Source: Curvularia clavata (taxonomy: Eukaryota). From it: a DNA stretch of 64,000 nucleotides. A model generated the notes under the pieces. The model worked only from the letters and a program-made list of their open reading frames with translations. It was not told the DNA's origin and did no database searches. Of the stretch, positions 1 to 64,000 are shown one piece after another. The stretch covers positions 5,766,001-5,830,000 of the forward strand of contig CP089274.1 in NCBI GenBank assembly GCA_023920165.1. Reading direction: 5' to 3'. Made by a program: the position numbers and the translations under genes. Positions within the stretch are counted from its first letter, which is position 1; the number at the start of each line of letters is the position of its first letter.

Positions 1-2918
1 GGATATCATCTCTCTAGACGAAGAAGACGACATAAACAAGCGTAACTGTATTCACCGCCTTGTCATCAACATTGGCCGTTCCAAGAGCGGTGACACATTC
101 GGTGTCGATGGAACGCTCCTGCCCAGTTCAGGCGAAAACGGGAACTTCATAGTGCCAGCTACCGACCCCAATCGCCAACCTCGCCCTTGCACTACTACCG
201 AGGAAGAATCGACACAACTGCTTAGTGAGAACGACGAGTCTGTCCGCTTGCTCATCTTTCTGCTTGACGAGCTGCGTGCCGAGCAGCGTAATGCGCTTCA
301 ATCTCGTGACTCCTACGGAAGACTCCCACTTCATTACGCGGCACAATATGGCTTCGTGATCATCTGCCAGGTTGTCATAAAGCATATGCAAGATTGGGGC
401 CAGTTTGATGTGTCACGAGGCATTGACTCCCCCCACTGGCAGGATGCCGATGGCAACGCGCCTTTGCACCTCAGTGTCATGGGTGGGCATGTCCTAACTA
501 CCAAAACGCTCCTGGAGGCAGAGAACTGGCGGGGTACTAACAAAGAAAGACGCGCCTCCAGAATATCCACTGCCCGCTCAGGAGCAGTTCTGGCTCTGGC
601 GACTCGATCAAACTTTGTTGATATTGTCAAACTCTTAGTTGAAGCTGATGTCGACGTCAACTACCAGGACGAGGGTGGCGAAACCGCTCTACACATGGCA
701 GCGCGCTACGGATATGATCAGTGTGCCAAGGTTTTGCTGGAGGGCTCTAATACGAACAAAGCGGAGGTCGATATTCCTGAAAAGACGTTTGCCTGGACGC
801 CACTATTCATTGCTTGTGTCGATGATCATCTCTCAATCGTGGAACTCTTGGCCGCTGCTGGAGCTGATCTGCACCGATGCGACAATTCCGGCTGGACAGC
901 AAAAGAGCACGCAGCACTTCGTGGTCATATGCAGATTGCAGAAAGACTATGCGAACTTGCTCCCACATCAGTCTCGCCAAGCGTGGCACCCACGGATGCA
1001 CGGATTTCTCGAAGTGGTTCACCTCCCCAGAATTCTCTTGACGAGCGACGATCCAAGAATCTGAACCGAGACACAAACGTTTCCATACAGAAACCGCCAG
1101 AACCTGTAAAAACCTTTGGTCACCGCTACCTAACAAACGAAACCATGGTTTTGGTCAGTTTGGGGTCTATGGATGTCCGAAAAGACATACCGGCAGTCAA
1201 ACTCGACGACATTCCGCTTGCCGATGCACATGCAACGCAGCTAGATACTGCTCTATCTCTAGTCGTTCAGGCATCGGGAGCCAAAGGGGACCCCACAATC
1301 ATCGATTTACCCATTCAGGACAACATTGCCACAGAGCCTATTACATTCATGACCAGCGATATCACCAAAGTCAAGCTTTTGTTTGATCTTGTTCCTACCT
1401 ATGCAGGAACACATGAGCGGTCAATGGGGCGAGCCGTTGCTTTGCTCTCCACCATAAAGACCAGTGTCGGATCGAAGCGAATTCCCCTCCAAGGAGATAT
1501 GAAAGTCCCCATTGTGGCGGCCTCAACGCTGGACGTTATTGGATCGGTCAACTTCAACTTTCTGATTATCACACCCTTTCATCATCCAAACATGTCGATT
1601 ACTGAGCAACACACTTACTGGAAGAAGATGGCTGCAACAACGATGGTCATCGGCCACCGTGGTCTCGGAAAGAACACGGCGTCTCGCACATCGCTGCAGC
1701 TCGGCGAGAACACCATACAGTCATTTATCTCGGCCGCTAATCTGGGCGCTGAGTATGTCGAATTCGATGTGCAGCTGACAAAAGACCATGTCCCGGTCAT
1801 CTATCACGACTTCCTTGTCAGCGAGACCGGTATTGATGCGCCTGTACACACTCTTACCCTAGACCAATTCCTACATATTGGCGAGGGATCAAATCCTCGT
1901 TATGCTCGAACAGGGTCTCCAGACAGAACGCCCAATCTCAACGGCACCGAAGAAGACCGTCCCAGCGTGCGAAGGCCAAGGTCTTACTCTGTGGACAATT
2001 CCAAGCAACGCAACATTCACACCGACCGCGCCGAGGAGCTTACGGAGCGCATGAAATACACGCGTGATTTTAAGAAGAAGGGTTTCAAAGGCAACAGCCG
2101 CGGCTATTCTATCCAGTCCTCGTTTACAACTCTTGAACGCATGTTTGACGAAGTACCGCAATCAGTTGGATTCAACGTCGAGATGAAGTACCCAATGCTG
2201 CACGAGTCGGAAGAAGAGGAAATGGACCAGTATGCAGTAGAGTTGAACTCTTTCGTCGACACAATTTTGGAAAAGGTGTACGACAAGATGGGCGAGCGTA
2301 ACATTATCTTCTCGTCGTTCAACCCAGACATTTGTCTCATGTTGTCCTTTAAACAGCCCTCCATCCCGGTATTGTTCTTGACAGATGCCGGAACATCGCC
2401 GGTTGGCGACGTGCGAGCCGCCAGTTTGCAAGAAGCGATCCGTTTCGCTAGTCGCTGGAATCTGCTCGGAGTCGTCAGCGCCGCTACACCGCTCGTCATG
2501 TGCCCCAGGCTTGTCAAAGTAGTAAAAGAGAGTGGTCTTGTTTGCGTCAGTTATGGAATTTTGAACAACGACCCCAAAAATGTTTTGGTAAGTACACCTC
2601 TTTCAACTGGAACTGAAGACGCGTGATGTACTAACGCATGTACCACAGGTGCAAAAGAAAGAAGGCATTGACGCCGTTATTGTAGACAGTGTGCTTAGAG
2701 TCCGTCAGGGACTACAGGCTCCGAACCAAGACGGTACAAATGGTGCAGAGGGGAATCCTTTGTCGCTTGCTGTGCCATCGGAATCTGTGCCTTCTATAAA
2801 GGAGGCGAGCGAGGCTATGGAGAATGGCACCACTGAGACGAATGGCGTCAATGGAGTCAACGTTACCAATGGAGTCAATGGCACCAACGGCACAGTACAG
2901 CAGCCAAGCGGACAGTAA
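1..2918 (+). CDS. GDE1: Glycerophosphocholine phosphodiesterase Gde1 (ankyrin repeats + GDPD domain), 5'-truncated by window
   Basis: Ankyrin motifs (GRLPLHYAA, GETALHMAA, WTPLFIAC) followed by GDPD motifs VIGHRGLG and EFDVQLTKD..PVIYHD; intron 2588-2648 joins last exon ending TAA 2918. Confidence 0.93.
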
Positions 2919-3544
2919 AATTTTCGCATCTGTTTTTTGGCATAGATTAGGCGATGAAAAGCGTTGGATCGTTCTCTGCTTTGTTATATAGAGCAACATA
3001 CGAACGAACAGCCAGTTTTTTTCACAAAATCCTCTCCTCCATATCAAATAGTGAAAACATGAACTCATGTGTGACAAACATATGCCACTGAGAAACAGTA
3101 AAATTCGAAGCCTACTGGAGATCTCACATCGAAACGTGGATTTTGCCATACTAGTAGATTACTTCTGGATTCAGGCTTTACATGTTACCCATGCTCAACG
3201 AAACCCTAAATATATGCATATACCTAGTGAATCTGGTGACAAAAAGGTCAACGTCTAGATACGACCATGGGGCGCAGAGAAGACCGCCCCAAAGGTACTA
3301 GACCAGGTCAACTGGGAAAAGAAAAAGAAAAAAAACTTCAATACAGATGTTTCTTGTCCTTCTTTACCAAAGTTGACCTCACTCAATACTCATCGTTATC
3401 GCAAGAACGCCTAACCATCCATACCATCGCTATGCAGTGTGCAACGAACGAACGAACAAAACAAATCAGCAAGAAAACAAATCAGGACCTGGGAACAATC
3501 CCATCAGTACTATTGACGTCTCTCTCCACTCTCTGTCATGCACG

Positions 3545-4830
3545 TCACAGCCTACCGACCCCAACTCGAGGTCCAAACTCGCCACGGTTGAACTTTTTCA
3601 AATCATAGCCTGCTTGCTTGAATCGCTTTGCTTCCCACCTGCGCTTAGTCTGAAACTCTTCGCTCGCAACTCGTTTCTTGGCATCTGTTTTGTCGAGGCT
3701 GTCGCTGTGAAGGGCGAGGTTTTCTTGCCAGGAGTAGGAAAAGTCTTTGAGGAGCAGAGAGTGGTTTGAGGCGGTGGTGGTAGTAGTAGTAGTGGTGGGC
3801 TTTGAGGGCTTGGCTGATACTGATGTGGCGGGAGGAGCGGGAGGAATGCTCAAGTCGAAAGAGGCTGGTTCATGAGCGTTGAATTGCGGCTTGTTGGTGA
3901 AAAAGGGATCGATATCGTCGGCGTGCGCTTTTTCTCTGGAGATAGGCGCCTTGCGCTCTGAAGCGAAGATGCGTTTGGGCGGTGTGTCGAGCTGCATGGT
4001 GTCTTCAAGCCCTTTGATCCCAAAGACATTGTTTTGCTGGCGAGCAGGCGCCTTGCTTGTCTTGACGGGTCCTGGTATCCAGTCGCTCTCCGGATCACTG
4101 TCTGCATCTTGAGTCACACCTCTACGCCGCCTGTTCTCTTCATCCTCGCATGGCTGTAACCTAGGTCCAGCTGGTGTTATTCTGACCCGCTCCTTCTCTT
4201 TTCCTTTTGAGTGTGGTTTCGCTACAGAGGTATGGGGCTCGGGCTCAGCAGTTGGCTCTTCGCCTCGCATCTGGGCTTCCCTGACGTCCTTGACGAGGCT
4301 GCTGGGTATGGCAGCATGAATCTCGGTCATGAGCTTGGCTCGCCTGCAGTATCCATTCCAATCCTCTACGGCTAGTTTGCCGGCCGCCTCGTTGAGCGCA
4401 CTGGCTGGGTTTGGCTGGATGAGGAGACATGATATCGTTACTAATACGTCGCGGAGCTTCAGTGTACTGCTCCAGTCGCGTTTCAGCGTCTCTACACAAA
4501 CGGCACCAGTGGCCTCATCTATATTCGGGTGCCATAGTCTCGTCCTGAATTGTGCCGTGGGTGGGGCCGCAGGGTATGTGGGTGGGATATCGAGGTGGAG
4601 TCGCCATACGCCGCCTGAGTAGGGTGTGCCGACCGGACCGGCGAGGAGAACGTCGAGCGATGTGAGATCCTCAGAGCCGTCGGACTCGGGTGCAAATAGA
4701 TAATTAGGTGGAAGACCAGCAGTGTGGAGGGAGCCGTGGTCAGTGGCAAGACGGCGCAGTGACTTTGAATTCTGAGTGCTGTTGTCAGTAGGTAAGCGTT
4801 GACGCGCCTTGACTATGGGGTTCTAACCAT
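3545..4830 (-). CDS. Ubiquitin-conjugating enzyme E2 S-like with long C-terminal extension
   Basis: ATG-only first exon (4830-4828), intron 4827-4772, then NSKSLRRLA...GPVGTPYSGGVW...WHPNIDEATGAVCVETLKRDW...QPNPASALNEAAG (UBC fold, catalytic Cys) continuing into ORF 3545-4330. Confidence 0.88.
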
Positions 4831-5261
4831 GGCGACGAGCACCTATTTCAAAAATGCTGCATGTGTGTATGTAGCGAGGCAAATAGTAAAGACCTTGGAT
4901 GATGTTTGTATTTTACATGAGCCTGGCGGCTCTAGCTGCAGGCGCTGGCGTTGGCTTTGGCGTCGTGCAGCTGCAGCGCATGCAAGTCGCGACGCCCCGC
5001 ACTTGTTAGCGCGCGACTTTGGCGTTTGCTGCCTTTGTCACTACGTGGAAAGAGAGTGTTGGACATGGCAATACATCCACAGTGTTGGACTACATGCAAC
5101 CCGGTCATTTCAGTCATATAATGCGGACTGCTATCTACATGCCACTATGGTTCCATCAAAAATGCTTGTTCTCCTGCGACTATGGCATTAACTCATATTT
5201 TCGCAATACCATCCTTGGAACGCCACGCTGAAACCTTGCAAACCCATGTATGTGCCTATCA

Positions 5262-56781: not shown

Positions 56782-58636
56782 ACGTAGTTTATAAGCGAGT
56801 CGGTCATACAAGCGAGTCGGTCACCCTACTAACTTTGCGCACCTTTACAAGCGTGTAGCTCCACCATATATAGATAGTTTTGACAGATATTAAGATAGTA
56901 GATTAATTGCTATCTAGAGTATCTTTCTTACATGTACGCGAGTTATGGCCAGTCTCTTTGCATCTACTACAGCGCGCAAGAGCCCGGCCGCTGACACCTA
57001 ATCGCTCTCCTCCCTGACGCTCTTCATAAGCAATCTGCTCATCAGCATCGCGTTGAGCGATAATATCCTCGCCAGCTCCCTTTGTGAGTACTCCTTGCTT
57101 CTGTATTCGCTTTCTTTTACGCTGTCTACGCTTTGATGCTAGCTTATTAGCCTTCTGAAGACTAGTGATCTGATCGCGCATTAGCTTAGCCGATAGCATT
57201 ATTACTTGCGCGCCTTTCTTAAGCTGATCAATTGCTGCGATAATTGAAGCTGGCGAAGAGCTCTTATGCTGTCGAACGCGATTACTTATTAGCGTTGATT
57301 GAGCTTCAAGCTCGCGTACGTTGCTCGGCGTACAGGGCTGCCAGAGAGCTTCCGCGAGAGCAGCTGGAGGAGTAGGCGTACGTAGCTGTACGTCAAGCTT
57401 TGATAGAACAGTATCTGGCTGGAGAGGAACAAGGCCTGCGCCTCGGAAAGCTGAGCAGATATTGGCTGGCGTGAAGGATCGGTCGAACGCTGCCTTAAAC
57501 GCTGGTAGAAACTCGAGCTTGGTGATGTGGTTGATATGGTTGCGTATCAGACTCTCTACCTCACGGCTATACGCGCGCTTTAATGGGGAGAAGCAGCCAA
57601 CGTCAAGAGGCTGAAGTAGGTGAGACGAGTGAGGCGGCATACAGAGCGTGTAGATATTGTTCTCCTTGCAGAGCTCTTGGAACTCAAGTGACTGGTGGCT
57701 CTCATGGCCATCAAGGATAAGTAGCCGGCGTGCTCCAACAACCTTGCCATCTGTATGCTTAATAAAGTGCTTTAGCCACTCAACTCCAAGCTCATTAGTC
57801 GTCCAGCCGTTTTTGCTCACTGCGATCGCCCAGTCGCGTGGGATTTCTGCCTCCTCGTACCAGGCAGACAGGTGATACTTGCCAGTAAAGATCAGAAATG
57901 GTGGGATAGACCAGCCAGCTGCGTTAATCGTAGCGATAAACGTCACCCACTCGCGACCACCTGGCTGGATAGCCTTTGGATGGCCTCTTCTCTCTGACGC
58001 TGTAACGACAAGCTGAGTAGTAATCTTGCCCATTAAAAAGCCAGCTTCGTCAAAGTTGTAGACGTCCTCGTCGCAGATGCCGTACTTGGCCTTCGTCTGC
58101 TCTACAAGCTCAAACCAGCTCTTGATTAAGACCGGATCTTCACATAGGGCTCTCTGCCTATCATACGCTCGATTGAAACGCGTCGTAAGACTGTCTGTAC
58201 GCTTGACAAAGTTGCGCGGCCAGTGAACGCCAACCTGGCCAGCGTCGCGCGCAGCCAGCAGCTTATCAGCCATATCTCGCACAGCAGCATAGGTAGGCGC
58301 AAATCCACGTAGATCGAGATCGATTATATGGCTAGCAATCACTTGCTCTTCTAGCTGCGATAGCTTCTTTGAATTAGGCTGGCAATCGCGCCGCGCGTGC
58401 CTCCCAGCGCGTCGGTCGATCAGTGTTGATTTCGGAACATTGAAGGCTATAGCAGCGCGTCGGGTACTCTGGATTTGATTACTATCTAGAGAAGAAAGGG
58501 CAAGCTGAATATCCCCTTCGTGAGAAGTTAATTTAGAAGCGTGGTGTGGAGACATTGCGCGTAAAGTTAAGGTGGGTGATCAAAGCTAGAGGGGTGACCG
58601 ACTCGCTTGTATGACCGACTCGCTTATAAACTACGT
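56782..58636 (-). mobile_element. Full-length Fot1/pogo-family (Tc1-mariner superfamily) DNA transposon, 1855 bp
   Basis: Perfect 45-bp TIRs 56782-56826 and 58592-58636 (ACGTAGTTTATAAGCGAGTCGGTCATACAAGCGAGTCGGTCACCC); TA on both sides (56780-81, 58637-38); single transposase ORF. Confidence 0.96.
56903..58555 (-). CDS. Fot1-type DDD transposase (HTH-psq, CENP-B HTH, DDE_1, CCHC knuckle)
   Basis: [42 protein letters not shown] catalytic Asp motifs; C-terminal [14 protein letters not shown]; 550 aa uninterrupted. Confidence 0.95.
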
Positions 58637-59475
58637 TACATCAGATTTACAGCATCTCCCGGTGCAAGAAAAGTGGTTGTAAGCAAAGAAAATGATTCTC
58701 TCCTTGGAGCCAACCAAGCACCTATTAAAAGATAAAGATCAGCGCGGGGAGCGCTAGGTCACGGGATTGATATCTTGCTAAGAGGGTAGATGCTAGTGCA
58801 TCTAGAGATGTTATGATATTCAGGACATTTGTAGATTTTATTCGCTTGGCTAGAGGACAAAGATACCAGAGCCTACAGTGATGAGGATACAACGGTGGAT
58901 ACATTCTACTATTACTCTCACGGTCAACTCCGAATAGTCTCTCTTATAAAGATTGATACTAGTTATCCTATCGTATATAGAACTGATTGTTACTTTCAGT
59001 TAACTTCTACAAATCTTTTTAACTTGGATCTCCAATAATCGCAGGGCCTACCGCGTTCAACCATCTCGCCCTAACCTGGACCAAAATCGGGTAACTATAG
59101 CCTAACCGCTTATCATAAAATAAGCGAGCTGGATTCTGGTTTCTCTAATAGATGCTTGCGCATGTTATTGTTTGGATATCTGATATTGATAAGAGACTAT
59201 ACAGCCTTCGCAGAAACTAACCAATGCTATTGTAGAATATATCAATAGGTGTTTTTGCTTGTTGAGATGTAACACCTTTGCAACAGTTACAGTGGGATGT
59301 AGTATCTAGCTTACCGCCATCGCTTGGCTACAATTGACACTATCGTATCCCTGTAGTTCCACCAGGAACAGCACAGTTAATAGGAACTCTCACTCATGTA
59401 GAGATGAAGATAATTCTCCAACACACTCAGCATTTTTACCACTACAATCTTTTTTTTCCGTCTTTATACTCCAAT

Positions 59476-61602
59476 ATGAGGCTATTCATACTCTTGGGAA
59501 TATTTCTACCTTCTTTGTTATGTACGGCCGTAATTTTAGAAGGCGTTGGGGGTCTTCAGAAGAGAGACAGCACAGCAGAGAGGGTAAGCTCAGCTAGGAT
59601 TTAGCCTGCGATGGATCGCATGATTACTGATAGCTTACTATGGTGCAGACTGTAGGTTGGCCCAAGCGATGAAGATGATAGGTCGAAGAGAGACTTTATT
59701 AATAGCGGTTCGTGATATAGCAATTTGTAACACCTAACACCTCTGCACGCTATATGAACTAGAGAGGTTGCTAACAGCTATTGGCGGTATAGCTCGTAAG
59801 TAAATCTATGCCTATACGTGATAGAAGAGTAGGAGAATTTACTGAAGACTAATGATGGTGGTGTAGAAAGTAAGTAGACGCAGTGTTTTTATAAAATGGA
59901 CTGACTAGAGACTTTATTAACAGCTATTGGTGTAGGAAGTAAGTAGAATTAATCTCTCTACACAATAGATAAACTAGAGATAACTATTACTAATAGCTTC
60001 CATCACTGTAGTGCGTAAGTGAACTTGAATCTTCCAAACAGTAAGCCAACGAGAGACTCCGCTAATGGCTGGTGGTATAGCTAGTAAGTAGGCTTAATAT
60101 CTTTAAAAGATATATGAATTAGAGACTATGCTAATATCTGTTGGTGGTAAAGCGAGTAAGTCGACTTAATATCTCTGCGCAATAGATAAACTAGAGACTG
60201 TGCTAATAACCACTGGTGGATTAGAACGTAAGGTCAACACCTCTAAAAAATAAACTAACTAGAGATTGCTAACAGCTGGTGGTGGTATAGAAAGTAAGTG
60301 GACTTAATATCTCTCTGGAATGAACTAATTAGAGGCTTTACTAATGACTACTGACGATATAGCAAGTAGGTAAAATTGAAATCTCTAAATAATAGACTAA
60401 CTAGAAACTGTATTAACTTTTGCTCGCGTAGGAAGTAGGTTGACTTAACATTTTTACATAATAAACAAACTACATAGAAATATTACTAATAGCCGCTATC
60501 ACTTTAGTGCGTAAGTAAGCTTAGAGCTTCTAAAGAGCAGACTAACTTGAAACTATACTAATGGCTGGTGGTGGTGTAGAACGTAAGTAGAGTTAATGAC
60601 TCTAAAAGATCGACAAACTAGAGACTGAGCTAATATATATTGGTGGTATAGCGAGTAGGTAGACCTAATGTCCTTACGCAATAGACTAACTAGAGACTTT
60701 ACTAATTGCTTCTGGTGATATAGCGAGTAAGTAGACTTAAGATTTCTATGTAATAGATAAACTAGAGACATTACTAATATCTACTGGTGGTATAGGTTGT
60801 AAGTAGATTTAATAACTATACATAATACATAAATAAGGTAGAGAAGTTGCTAATAAATACCGGTGGAGTAGAATGTAAGTGGACTTTATATCTACACCAT
60901 AGACATTACTAACATCTACTGGTGGTATAGATTGTAAGTAGACTCAATAACTATACGCGATAGATAAGTTAGAGATTTACTAATAATTACTGGTGGTATA
61001 GAAAGTAAGTAGATCTACGCAATAGATAAGCTGGAGATTTGCTAATAATTCCTGGTGGTATAGGCTGTAAGTAGATCCAATATCTATACTCAATAGATAA
61101 GCTAGAGGTTTACTAACAATCTCTTGTAGTAAAGTGTGTAAGTATACCTAATATCTTTAAAGCATTGATAAATAGAGATATTACTAACAATGGCTGGTTA
61201 TATAGGAAGTAAGTAAGATTAATATCTCTAAGAGATAGAATAACTATAGATTACTAACAGCTGCTGGTGATATAGCGAGTAAGTAGACTTAGTATCTCTA
61301 TACAATAAACTAAATAGAGACTGTACTAATAGCTACTGGTGGTATAGTATGTAAGTAAACTTAATACCTCTATAGAATAGATGAAATTAGATATTGGTGA
61401 TAGCTAATGGTGATATAGAAAGTAAGTGGACTTGATATCTCCATAGTAGACTAATCAGACACCTTACTAATGGCTGCTGGCGATGTAGGAAGTAAGTAAA
61501 ATTGAACTCTCTAGACAATAGACTAACTAGAGCCTGTGCTAACTGCTGGTGGTGGTATAGTGCAGCAAGATTGTTGCTGGTACAGTGTGTATGTTACTCT
61601 AA
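59476..61602 (+). CDS. Micro-exon gene: predicted 77-aa secreted Cys-containing peptide encoded by 29 exons (26 of 3 nt)
   Basis: Exon1 59476-59583 MRLFILLGIFLPSLLCTAVILEGVGGLQKRDSTAER; micro-exons start at 59649 ACT, 59721 CAATTT, 59793 CTC, 59867 AAA, 59936 GAA, 60012 TGC, 60081 CTA, 60153 CGA, 60225 AAC, 60291 AAA, 60363 CAA, 60432 GAA, 60508 TGC, 60580 AAC, 60652 CGA, 60724 CGA, 60796 GTT, 60872 AAT, 60931 ATT, 61002 AAA, 61064 GCT, 61135 TGT, 61206 GAA, 61276 CGA, 61348 TAT, 61419 AAA, 61489 GAA; last exon 61561-61602 CSKIVAGTVCMLL* (3' end uncertain). Confidence 0.8.
59584..61560 (+). repeat. Degenerate tandem array of 28 intron-like units (56-73 nt, mode 69; unit period ~72)
   Basis: Consensus ~GTAAGTAGACTTAATATCTCTA..AATAGAYAAACTAGAGAC..TRCTAAY...GGTGGTATAG-NNN; 21/28 donors GTAAGT; 25 TAG, 2 AAG, 1 CAG acceptors. 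Confidence 0.92.
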
Positions 61603-62325
61603 TTCCACTTTCTAGAAGATTCATGCATAGAATCTCTATTAACCCCATATCTAGAGAAGTAGGCAGTGCAGGGGGGATTTTTTTTGGACAGCTTAGGAGT
61701 GTTTTGTCCGTTGTATGGAGTTCCCTTTATGGGTTTAAGCTCAGGCCGGAGAAAACGGGTTTCTGTCACTACCATTCCAGAATAGAAAGTTATACATACT
61801 ATAAACATAATTCTTTCTTTCCAAAAGCCCATTGATCCCCGCGCCTGTATATAATACTGTAATTGAATACAGTGCATTCAATGGCTAGCTAATCACAATT
61901 ATCCACCCATACTCTCTATCTTCAATCTCGAACAGGATCAAAGTCAAAGTTGATCTTAATGCTAGATTTCTTAGCGGGTCAGCAGACCTTAATCCATTCT
62001 GAGGATGAAAACCTTCGACCCTTCCTGCAACTTCTTCTATGCAGAGCTATAGGGCGTGATTAACCCGGGAGATATAGAATGCTATTATCGGAGATGTACA
62101 AAGGCTACTTGAGCCTAAAAGGCGGCACATTCTAGTAATCATGGGTAAACTGTACCATGGAAGAGACCGTATTATTGGTGGGCGCGTACGATACCAGAGT
62201 TCTTCATTTGATCAACTGGAAGAGTGAAAGATCGAAGTTTGAAAGTGCAGTACTACTTAGCAATTTAAATTAAGCTACATTCTTGATCGTTAAGATCAAC
62301 CTATAGCTCTCCAACCTTGATCAAC

Positions 62326-64000
62326 CTAGTCAAACACATCTGTAGCAAAGCGCTCATTGCGTAGGCCCTCGAACCATTCTCTAGCCTTTGCATCATCCGC
62401 CTCCCTTCCTTCTTTCTCGTTTAGTCGCTTTTTGGCGATCTTGATCAGGGTCTCCTGTACGCCATTACCAACATCCCGAGATCCGCACACGAAAAGCTTT
62501 GCGCCGGCCTCGAATTGTTCCACAATGTCGGCGCGATCATGGTAAAGGCGATCCTGGACGTACTTGCAACCATGCGAATCTTCAGGTTGCCTTGAGAACG
62601 CAAGTCTCAGGCTGACAGCACCCATTTCCTCCCAACGCTTGAGTAAGTCCCCATATATAAGATCGGTATCTGGGGCGCGACAACCGTAGAAAAGAATGGC
62701 AGGAGCCAACTTCCGACCTGCTGCTGCTTGCGCTGCACGTTCTTGAATGAATCCTCGGAAAGGCGCCAATCCAGTACCCGCAGCAATCATGATGACTGGA
62801 ACACTCTGGGAGTCTTTCGGCAAGTGGAAAGCCTGATGCGAGGGGCGTACATTGACGTGGAGTTTATCTCCTGGCACAAGGCTGGCAAGGTAGTTCGTCG
62901 CAACACCAACATGGCGCCCCTGGCCGCTCAGAGCCGGCTGGTCAACAACTGAATAAGTCAAGGTGACATGATTTGGGTTCCACAATGGTGAAGACGAGAT
63001 GGAGTATTGCCGAACGCGCATAGGTGGCTGCATCTTCAAGAAAACACCGAGCGGTAGCTGCGTGGATGGGAAACGCTCCAAGAGATCTAGGACAGATACA
63101 CGTTTGGCGGTAATCTCGGAACTGAAGTCCTCATCGGCGAGACGAGCCAGGGCCTTCTTTTCGGCGTCATCTCTGGCACTTTCGAGAAGTGCTTGGATGT
63201 TGCGTTTGCTGGCGGGTTGTGCGAGTTCAACATATGCCCCGAAAACATCTGTAGCGCTGATGGGTGTGTCGGTTGGAAGAATTGTAGGTCCAGCGGAAGA
63301 GATGGTCAGCATGGAATCCCAGGTGAGACCGAAGTATCTCATTGCGCGATGGATATTCTCCTTAGGGTTGAGAGGCAGGACTGCTAGGTAGTCACCTGCA
63401 GAGTAGGTCATGTCGGATGGAAGGCTGATTTCAATATGCCTCTTCTTAGTAGCATCCGAGTCAGAGAGGATTTTGACTTCTTCTACGCGAGCTTCGCGAA
63501 CATCCTGGCGAAGTGTGGACGATCTTGGTGCTGTGACCTCGACGTTGAGCGTCGTCTCTAGTGAGTTATCCGCCTGTGTCTCTGTAGAACCGTACTTCTC
63601 ACGCAAGGCGGGCCATAAGATCTGATCTTCCCAAGTCTCGAAATCAGTGAAGATGTCACCAGATGCAGCATCAGTGCTACCCATGTTTACAAGCCTGGTA
63701 GCACCTCGCTCCTCCAAGACGGCATCGAGGTACTTTGGGACCTTGTGGAAAGTTTTCGCCCAGTCGCGATGGCCACAACCAAAGATAGCATACGAAACAT
63801 CTTTGAAATCGTTGCCTTTCAGCGTGCCAACCCAGTTGACGAAGTGGGCAGCATTATCAGCAGGCGCTCCTTCGTAAGATGCTGTGATAATGACGACGGG
63901 CTTGTCTGTTGGCATGCTCTCGCGAGCAGTGTCTAATGTATCGACCACATCTGCTCGGAAGCCATGGTTCGCCGCATCACTAGCGAGTCGATTCGCGAGT
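62326..64000 (-). CDS. Bifunctional cytochrome P450/NADPH-P450 reductase (CYP505/P450foxy type), reductase half; 5' part outside window
   Basis: FMN domain TASYEGAPADNA, FGCGHRDW; FAD motif RQYSISSSP; IAAGTGLAPFRGF; C-terminal ERFATDVFD. Confidence 0.92.
   Translation of the reverse strand, partial: LANRLASDAANHGFRADVVDTLDTARESMPTDKPVVIITASYEGAPADNAAHFVNWVGTLKGNDFKDVSYAIFGCGHRDWAKTFHKVPKYLDAVLEERGATRLVNMGSTDAASGDIFTDFETWEDQILWPALREKYGSTETQADNSLETTLNVEVTAPRSSTLRQDVREARVEEVKILSDSDATKKRHIEISLPSDMTYSAGDYLAVLPLNPKENIHRAMRYFGLTWDSMLTISSAGPTILPTDTPISATDVFGAYVELAQPASKRNIQALLESARDDAEKKALARLADEDFSSEITAKRVSVLDLLERFPSTQLPLGVFLKMQPPMRVRQYSISSSPLWNPNHVTLTYSVVDQPALSGQGRHVGVATNYLASLVPGDKLHVNVRPSHQAFHLPKDSQSVPVIMIAAGTGLAPFRGFIQERAAQAAAGRKLAPAILFYGCRAPDTDLIYGDLLKRWEEMGAVSLRLAFSRQPEDSHGCKYVQDRLYHDRADIVEQFEAGAKLFVCGSRDVGNGVQETLIKIAKKRLNEKEGREADDAKAREWFEGLRNERFATDVFD

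Follow-up and report, generated by a model that had tools for sequence, protein, structure and literature searches.

A tandem array of homologous predicted introns separated by single codons in Curvularia clavata, a candidate micro-exon gene

Background

Micro-exon genes (MEGs) of schistosomes and tapeworms contain consecutive tiny exons whose lengths are divisible by three, and they encode secreted products that exon skipping can alter by single residues (PMC7653826, PMC10526429). According to the excerpts of these two reports, MEG exons measure 3-81 bp, most of them being longer than one codon, and the introns between them are long, up to 5 kb. Here we describe a locus of the fungus Curvularia clavata in which 28 homologous intron-like units follow one another with, as a rule, a single codon between them. 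It lies in a 64,000-nucleotide stretch of contig CP089274.1 (assembly GCA_023920165.1, positions 5,766,001 to 5,830,000, forward strand), which was analysed as a whole and is called the window below; positions are counted from its first letter. Provided that the predicted introns are real, the gene model for this locus falls within the operational MEG definition given in the excerpt of PMC7653826, with 27 consecutive micro-exons. We assign a probability of roughly 0.6 to the reading that it is a genuine micro-exon gene that codes for protein and that expanded as an intron-plus-codon unit was amplified in tandem; its product would be a 77-residue secreted prepropeptide.

The likeness to MEGs lies in the run of tiny exons divisible by three, in the secreted product, which is a prediction here, and in the single-residue variation that skipping would allow. 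Unlike MEGs, the array has exons that are nearly all one codon long and introns of about 69 nt that are copies of a single unit. The MEG excerpts do not report the introns of those genes as copies of one another.

A second related process is intron gain by tandem duplication. Such gain is said to be the subject of Rogers' duplication model, and Zhuo et al. reportedly described in PNAS in 2007 introns born from tandem arrays in human genes. There, as in the array, repeat units bearing both a donor and an acceptor create introns, and intron number follows repeat number. The two differ in that one or a few alternative introns arise there from exon or repeat sequence, whereas in C. clavata an existing intron plus a codon is the repeat unit, with 28 introns and a coding sequence laid down codon by codon. 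In Zymoseptoria tritici, within-gene tandem duplication accounts for less than 1% of the gains of single introns, according to an excerpt of the report (PMC4457414).

Introner-like elements (ILEs) are families of near-identical spliceosomal introns within one fungal genome, as described in the same excerpt (PMC4457414). The array resembles the ILEs of Dothideomycetes in being a family of related spliceosomal introns in a single genome. It differs from them, so far as that excerpt goes, because hundreds of ILE copies lie scattered over unrelated genes, whereas the array's family is strictly local within the 64 kb. Its units are also only about 65% alike, compared with the near identity of ILE copies. 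ILE introns are further said, in work by van der Burgt et al. in 2012, to have stable secondary structure, a property that RNAalifold and a covariation analysis did not find in the array units.

Isolated 3-nt exons have been found in other fungi. In Coprinopsis cinerea, 27 of them occur in 26 genes and were recognized with the aid of long reads (PMC12230235), and each of the lipS genes of Dactylellina haptotyla has two (PMC5639578). In the excerpts of these reports such exons are solitary or paired, as opposed to the 26 consecutive ones here, and the introns that flank them are not reported as mutual copies.

Results and discussion

Organization of the array

Parsing of donors and acceptors resolves positions 59584-61560 of the + strand into a tandem array of 28 homologous intron-like units that range from 56 to 73 nt. 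Ten of the 28 are exactly 69 nt long, the modal length given by an earlier reading of the locus from its letters and open frames (the sequence-only reading). Neighbouring units are separated by 3 nt at 26 junctions and by 6 nt at one (59721-59726). The spacers spell 28 codons with no stop, and their frame continues that of the exons to the left and right of the array. The resulting gene model has 29 exons: 27 internal exons of 3 or 6 nt lie between exon 1 and a last exon that, with its stop codon, measures 42 nt. Its features, all on the + strand, are:

59476-59583 (+): exon 1, an ATG plus 35 codons, ending in phase 0 at the first donor
59584-61560 (+): intron array of 28 units, defined by donor/acceptor parsing, alignment and unit profile
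59584-59648, 59652-59720, 59727-59792, 59796-59866, 59870-59935, 59939-60011, 60015-60080 (+): units 1-7
60084-60152, 60156-60224, 60228-60290, 60294-60362, 60366-60431, 60435-60507, 60511-60579 (+): units 8-14
60583-60651, 60655-60723, 60727-60795, 60799-60871, 60875-60930, 60934-61001, 61005-61063 (+): units 15-21
61067-61134, 61138-61205, 61209-61275, 61279-61347, 61351-61418, 61422-61488, 61492-61560 (+): units 22-28
59649-61491 (+): 27 predicted micro-exons, the gaps between neighbouring units, all in phase 0 and without a stop triplet
59727-59792 (+): unit 3, the weakest predicted intron, with a GTAACA donor 3 nt past the lost homologous donor
61561-61602 (+): last exon, 13 codons plus a stop

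The units are homologous over their whole length. A single alignment takes in all 28 of them, with a mean column identity of 68%, and bears out the claim of the sequence-only reading that the introns are homologous copies. That reading also held that they share sequence beyond their splice signals, and it named identity no higher than in composition-shuffled controls as grounds for giving up the idea. With donor hexamer, branch motif and the three terminal nucleotides excluded, mean pairwise identity between donor and branch is 0.612, against 0.521 +/- 0.004 in the shuffled controls, and between branch and acceptor it is 0.581 against 0.468 +/- 0.009, and the idea thus withstands its own test. 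At a mutual likeness of only about 65%, the copies are not young.

This intron family is confined to the array, as far as the window reaches. The three internal motifs quoted in the sequence-only reading occur as exact matches 2, 3 and 9 times in the array and nowhere else in the window on either strand. A unit profile, which had been proposed as a check, recovers all 28 units; at E<=10 it finds no dispersed copy elsewhere in the window, a further 62 kb, and by the same profile the introns of other genes in the window are unrelated to the family. A three-junction splice pattern matches 11 times in the window, always within the array, where 100 shuffles lead to an expectation of 0, and a junction-chain finder detects no second chain in the window. 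Tandem Repeats Finder reports overlapping arrays over 60070-61560 with periods of 70-72 and 141 nt and 64-72% matches. GC skew is strongly positive (0.15-0.26) across 59600-61600 and is accompanied by AT skew, because the unit has a G/T-rich tail and an A-rich body.

Other roles for the repeat were considered. If retained, 26 of the 28 units carry an in-frame stop, and no frame is open across the array on either strand, the longest (on the minus strand) reaching 75 aa. An ordinary coding repeat is thereby ruled out. Rfam covariance models give no match at E<=1 within 58600-62300, and RNAalifold finds no consensus structure in the units. A TCTCTA/TAGAGA inverted repeat, which lies inside the units and is not terminal, is able to pair in 72.6% of cells compared with 73.4% in shuffles and shows no covariation. 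Direct abutment of AG and GT, the hallmark of a recursive splice or ratchet site, is absent at every junction, where 3 nt (once 6 nt) always intervene.

Retention of splice signals

All 28 units fit the canonical U2-type intron of filamentous fungi in donor, branch motif, acceptor and length, the criteria being a GTRNGT-like GT donor, YTRAY near the 3' end, a YAG or AAG acceptor and about 50-100 nt. Every unit begins with GTA, and all but one have G at position +5. The donor hexamer is GTAAGT in 20 units and GTAGGT in five, with GTAAGC, GTAAGG and GTAACA occurring once each. Every unit ends in AG (TAG 25, AAG 2, CAG 1). The YTRAY motif lies 18 nt from the 3' end in 23 units, 15 nt in three, and 14 and 11 nt in one each.

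The splice signals have been selectively retained while the rest of the unit diverged. The consensus base is kept in a mean of 25.6 of 28 units at 14 splice-signal columns (donor hexamer, branch pentamer and YAG) and in 18.4 of 28 at the 41 other ungapped columns (Mann-Whitney p=3.7e-7), a comparison in which indels blur ungapped columns distant from the anchors. The gapped alignment agrees, since apart from the final AG its sole invariant columns are two that belong to the branch motif. No unit of the 28 has lost its GT or AG, and other sites match the consensus at 66%.

Where a signal has been lost, another is found nearby. Units 4 and 26 no longer have a branch motif at the ancestral place and carry a replacement CTAAT 14 and 11 nt from the acceptor, respectively. 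Unit 3 has no donor left at the homologous position, and a usable GT follows at a distance of exactly 3 nt, which keeps the frame. The 6-nt exon before unit 3 exists because the donor moved 3 nt downstream. Within the repeat, conservation is lowest at the three spacer columns, where 9-15 of 28 units have the consensus base (p=0.018).

Amplification history

The sequence-only reading proposed that an intron-plus-codon unit had been amplified in tandem, and this proposal is supported by contiguous whole-length homology and by derived features common to distant units. A possible seeding of the array by an introner-like element was part of the same proposal; dispersed copies that might bear on it are absent from the rest of the window at E<=10, and the metagenome loci described below match the unit profile weakly, at E>=0.03. 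On the evidence of the alignment, local tandem amplification of such a unit, partly as multi-unit blocks, appears to be the only reasonable origin of the array. Units 6 and 13, seven apart, are both 73 nt long, have in common a 4-nt insertion and an unusual 3' tail, and are each followed by a Cys codon. Units 7/14 and 8/15 are mutual near-best partners at 72% and 78%. Together these pairs point to at least one probable duplication of a multi-unit block.

A simple seven-unit block period was considered and rejected. It is supported by the 6/13, 7/14 and 8/15 pairs alone, and the lag profile is flat, mean identity at lag 7 being no higher than at other lags. Other best pairs (11/27 and 12/28) are offset by one from a recurring Lys/Gln-Glu-Cys codon pattern. 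With a flat profile and out-of-register best pairs, the history must have been more complex than one block event. Substitutions relative to the consensus have an ordinary spectrum of 189 transitions and 99 transversions.

Flanking exons and the predicted peptide

Exon 1 encodes a hydrophobic N-terminus followed by Lys-Arg. These features may be read as a signal peptide and a Kex2-type dibasic processing site. The true start is uncertain, because another in-frame ATG lies 72 nt upstream of 59476, inside an open frame at 59338-59604. The last exon shares its frame with exon 1 and the micro-exons, and a direct join of exon 1 to the last exon is also in frame. The predicted product has 77 residues, of which the 47 beyond Lys-Arg have an isoelectric point of 9.0 and include five Cys. 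Splicing of the array, secretion and processing of the product are all inferred from sequence.

Contigs from sequencing runs also overlap the region. One (X1, of guessed kind, depth about 3 and probably DNA of the same strain) contains an unspliced piece at 60302-60539 and has no bearing on expression. Three others (X2-X4), labelled as another organism, match the transposase and reductase genes on either side of the array at 90-99%. Over 58788-62098 they provide no cover except 34 nt at about 61731-61764 in X2 and X4, which says nothing on the presence of the locus.

Related arrays in metagenome sequences

The same architecture occurs in metagenome contigs. A generic three-junction scan (GTAAGT, 40-70 nt, TAG, 3 nt, GTAAGT, 40-70 nt, TAG, 3 nt, GTAAGT) identified at least 121 stretches, numbered L001-L121. 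Chains of at least five junctions are present in at least 55 loci and chains of at least ten in at least 25, and the longest chain among the matches listed runs to 58 in a row (L069). For 17 chains of at least 12 junctions, from 15 loci, intron identity within the chain is 0.63-0.88, compared with 0.53-0.57 after shuffling. These are tandem intron-plus-codon arrays from several different intron families, their introns typically measuring about 65-75 nt. The scan suggests that this class of array is widespread.

The spacers of the metagenome arrays avoid stop codons. Overlap removal left 63 arrays, of which ten were dropped because one triplet made up more than half of the spacers, and 53 codon-diverse arrays were kept. 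Among the 581 spacer triplets that these contain there are 5 stops, where the position-specific composition of the spacers themselves predicts 34.5 (P=2e-10); being products of duplication, the triplets are not independent of one another. When each triplet type is counted once per array, there are 5 stops in 340 against 18.8 expected (P=1.3e-4). Concatenated spacers from arrays of at least ten units are open in frame 0 in 22 of 22 cases, in frame 1 in 16 and in frame 2 in three. The spacer strings often read as low-complexity peptide rich in Asp, Glu, Gln, Leu, Phe and Arg.

The frames flanking some arrays match the spacers. An automatic phase test of flanking exons was uninformative owing to degenerate array edges, and three cases were examined by hand. 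L027 has an upstream frame, in phase 0, that stays open over 254 codons as far as the donor at the entry to the array. Past the last acceptor of L010, the phase-0 frame runs open for 125 codons and the other two for 46 and 11; this exon has no protein homologue in the collection searched. The corresponding frame of L106 stays open for 82 codons, reaching the end of the locus, with poor discrimination from frame 1, which is open for 78. A resemblance of this downstream frame to the stretch ahead of HET domains was considered and dropped, as it has no Pfam match at E<=0.01. Stop avoidance and frame matching argue that the spacers as a class behave like translated codons, an interpretation that is thereby supported indirectly. 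The idea in the sequence-only reading that a minisatellite had here given rise to new protein sequence gains support from this behaviour.

Individual loci illustrate the range of contexts. In L008 (2488-5139, continuing in L010 from 2918), the gene seems to open with an ATG plus one codon; next come about 38 exons of one codon each, in which Ala, Leu, Pro and Thr are frequent, and then a normal exon of 115 codons that ends at a GTAAGT donor. The unit at 2701-2772 of this locus has a dead donor and now reads as a 72-nt exon, in frame and free of stops, and a 2-nt spacer restores the frame. The array of L061 (1780-3545, at least 26 units) lies downstream, and on the same strand, of an NPHP3_N/NACHT frame (1-879, E=5.6e-25), and may be part of a fungal NLR-type gene. 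L005 (12-3175) has 45 units in which every spacer is identical and reads Gly; excluded from the stop statistics of the diverse set, it is either a very young array or a plain minisatellite. Other long arrays are found in L069 (- strand, 1081-4991), L027 (925-2997) and L079 (54-4384). At least two styles of intron occur, one with purine-rich 3' tails like those of the window and one with pyrimidine-rich tails.

Similarity between the window unit and the metagenome introns is weak. The best match of the window unit profile to the metagenome loci has E=0.03; in L056 and L104 the matches recur and span the full length of the unit. Resemblance to the window unit is seen at the ends of the consensus units of L104, L098, L106, L113 and L056, with a GTAAGTAGAC-like 5' end and a TGGTGGTRTAG-like 3' end, and by their sequences L106, L113 and L056 clearly read as one intron family. 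The ends common to the window unit and these five loci could be due either to distant common descent or to a requirement for splicing beside tiny exons.

Alternative interpretations

Several observations weigh against a functional micro-exon gene. Many consecutive 3-nt exons are mechanistically demanding, and a full-text literature search, leaving aside subscription journals and supplements, yielded no description of one-codon-exon arrays. The absence of stops among the 28 triplets of the window is weak evidence, with an estimated chance probability of about 0.1-0.26, and the non-independence of the metagenome triplets has already been mentioned. Spacing in the metagenome arrays is constant at 3 nt at 423 of 436 junctions, which is about what the indel rate alone gives, and constant spacing was accordingly dropped as proof of selection. 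The donor of unit 3 is poor, the predicted mature peptide has an odd number of Cys, and the exon-1 frame (42 aa, 59476-59601) has no homologue in the protein collection at near or longer lengths. The locus is AT-rich, at 31-38% G+C (31-42% when array and flanks are taken together, against about 50%), and adjoins the open reading frame (ORF) of a pogo-like transposase. Indices of the repeat-induced point mutation (RIP) type, based on dinucleotides, are 1.61 and 0.69, values that would also fit a decaying repeat and that are inflated by the splice motifs themselves.

The composition, the RIP-like indices, the adjoining DDE_1 transposase ORF and the lack of an exon 1 homologue in the collection all favour a dead or never-functional locus. 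Here the intron of a former gene would have grown into a neutral minisatellite within a region rich in transposons and in A+T that RIP may have affected, and its splice-like motifs would be inherited from the founder unit. We consider this alternative unlikely. Neutral decay would erode splice signals like other columns, whereas the signals are far better kept (p=3.7e-7). The ordinary substitution spectrum also speaks against it, as does the intact signal-peptide-like frame of exon 1, which meets the first donor in phase 0.

The retention of internal splice signals likewise argues against a single long intron that bears a minisatellite. Exon 1 would then be joined to the last exon, either directly or via transient recursive steps, and the 3-nt spacers would never reach the mRNA; the product would be a 49-residue prepropeptide. 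It is to the credit of this model that the exon 1 to last exon join is in frame, that the 28 stop-free triplets of the window are not significant alone and that long runs of 3-nt exons are without published precedent in the literature searched. Neither the preservation of internal donors, branch motifs and acceptors in all 28 units, at a divergence of about 34% elsewhere, nor the compensating replacements of lost signals would be expected of unused sites. Strong GTAAGT donors recur every 72 nt, and intron definition should pair neighbouring sites. In addition, metagenome spacers avoid stops and match the frame of flanking exons. A long intron of this kind thus seems improbable.

Serial insertion of a mobile introner-type element beside its own copies, with the 3-nt spacers as target-site duplications, would fit the unit ends seen again in five metagenome loci and the repeated weak profile matches in L056 and L104, but those ends could instead be a convergent requirement for splicing beside tiny exons, the internal inverted repeat is neither terminal nor supported by covariation, the derived features common to units 6 and 13 fit unequal exchange better, and with no dispersed copies in the 62 kb of window and a block structure in the array we hold this origin to be very improbable.

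Genomic surroundings

The neighbours of the array are on the opposite strand. To the left, an intact 558-codon frame at 56903-58579 (-) has DDE_1, HTH_psq and Tc5 DNA-binding domains, by which it is classified as a pogo/Tc5-like transposase. Contigs of other runs match this frame at 90-99% in several variants, which suggests that it belongs to a multi-copy element. To the right, a frame at 62326-63999 (-) leaves the end of the window. It has flavodoxin, FAD-binding and NAD-binding domains, and on this basis it is assigned as the reductase portion (C-terminal part) of a protein that is either P450 reductase-like or a fused P450.

Proposed mechanism

Under the micro-exon gene reading, one short spliceosomal intron and its neighbouring codon, forming a 72-bp unit, would have been amplified in tandem, partly as multi-unit blocks. 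The outcome would be 28 homologous introns and 27 one-codon exons (one of them of two codons), preceded by a signal-peptide exon and followed by a short last exon. The short introns would be recognized and removed one by one through intron definition. A 3-nt exon is too short to be bound by acceptor and donor complexes at once, so neighbouring introns are probably removed in sequence. The mRNA would contain a 234-nt coding sequence for the 77-residue prepropeptide, from which signal-peptide and Lys-Arg cleavage would release a basic 47-residue peptide with five Cys. Because all junctions are in phase 0, skipping of any run of micro-exons, or a change in unit number by unequal exchange, keeps the frame. 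The locus could thus vary its peptide by single residues.

It is tempting to extend this scheme to the metagenome arrays. Tandem intron-plus-codon arrays might be an undescribed but recurrent fungal route for building and varying coding sequence residue by residue, a generalization that we offer tentatively and regard as possible without favouring it. Unequal exchange would add or remove single codons, point changes would recode them and in-frame skipping would give many isoforms. Examples would be the secreted Cys peptide of the window, the array of L061 with its upstream NACHT NTPase ORF, and the protein N-terminus in L008.

Implications

If the units are spliced, the C. clavata locus is a case of bulk intron gain, with 27 extra introns in 2 kb, by a mechanism whose part in fungi is reported to be marginal. 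It would likewise offer a concrete example of a minisatellite that gives rise, codon by codon, to new protein sequence, and would test the reach of the spliceosome with consecutive 3-nt exons. The gene would then be a fungal analogue of the flatworm MEGs, which are thought to vary secreted proteins. MEGs are a challenge to gene finding and read alignment, according to an excerpt of the report (PMC7653826), and arrays of one-codon exons may be similarly hard for gene predictors and read aligners to model. A class of genes or gene parts may be missing from fungal annotations.

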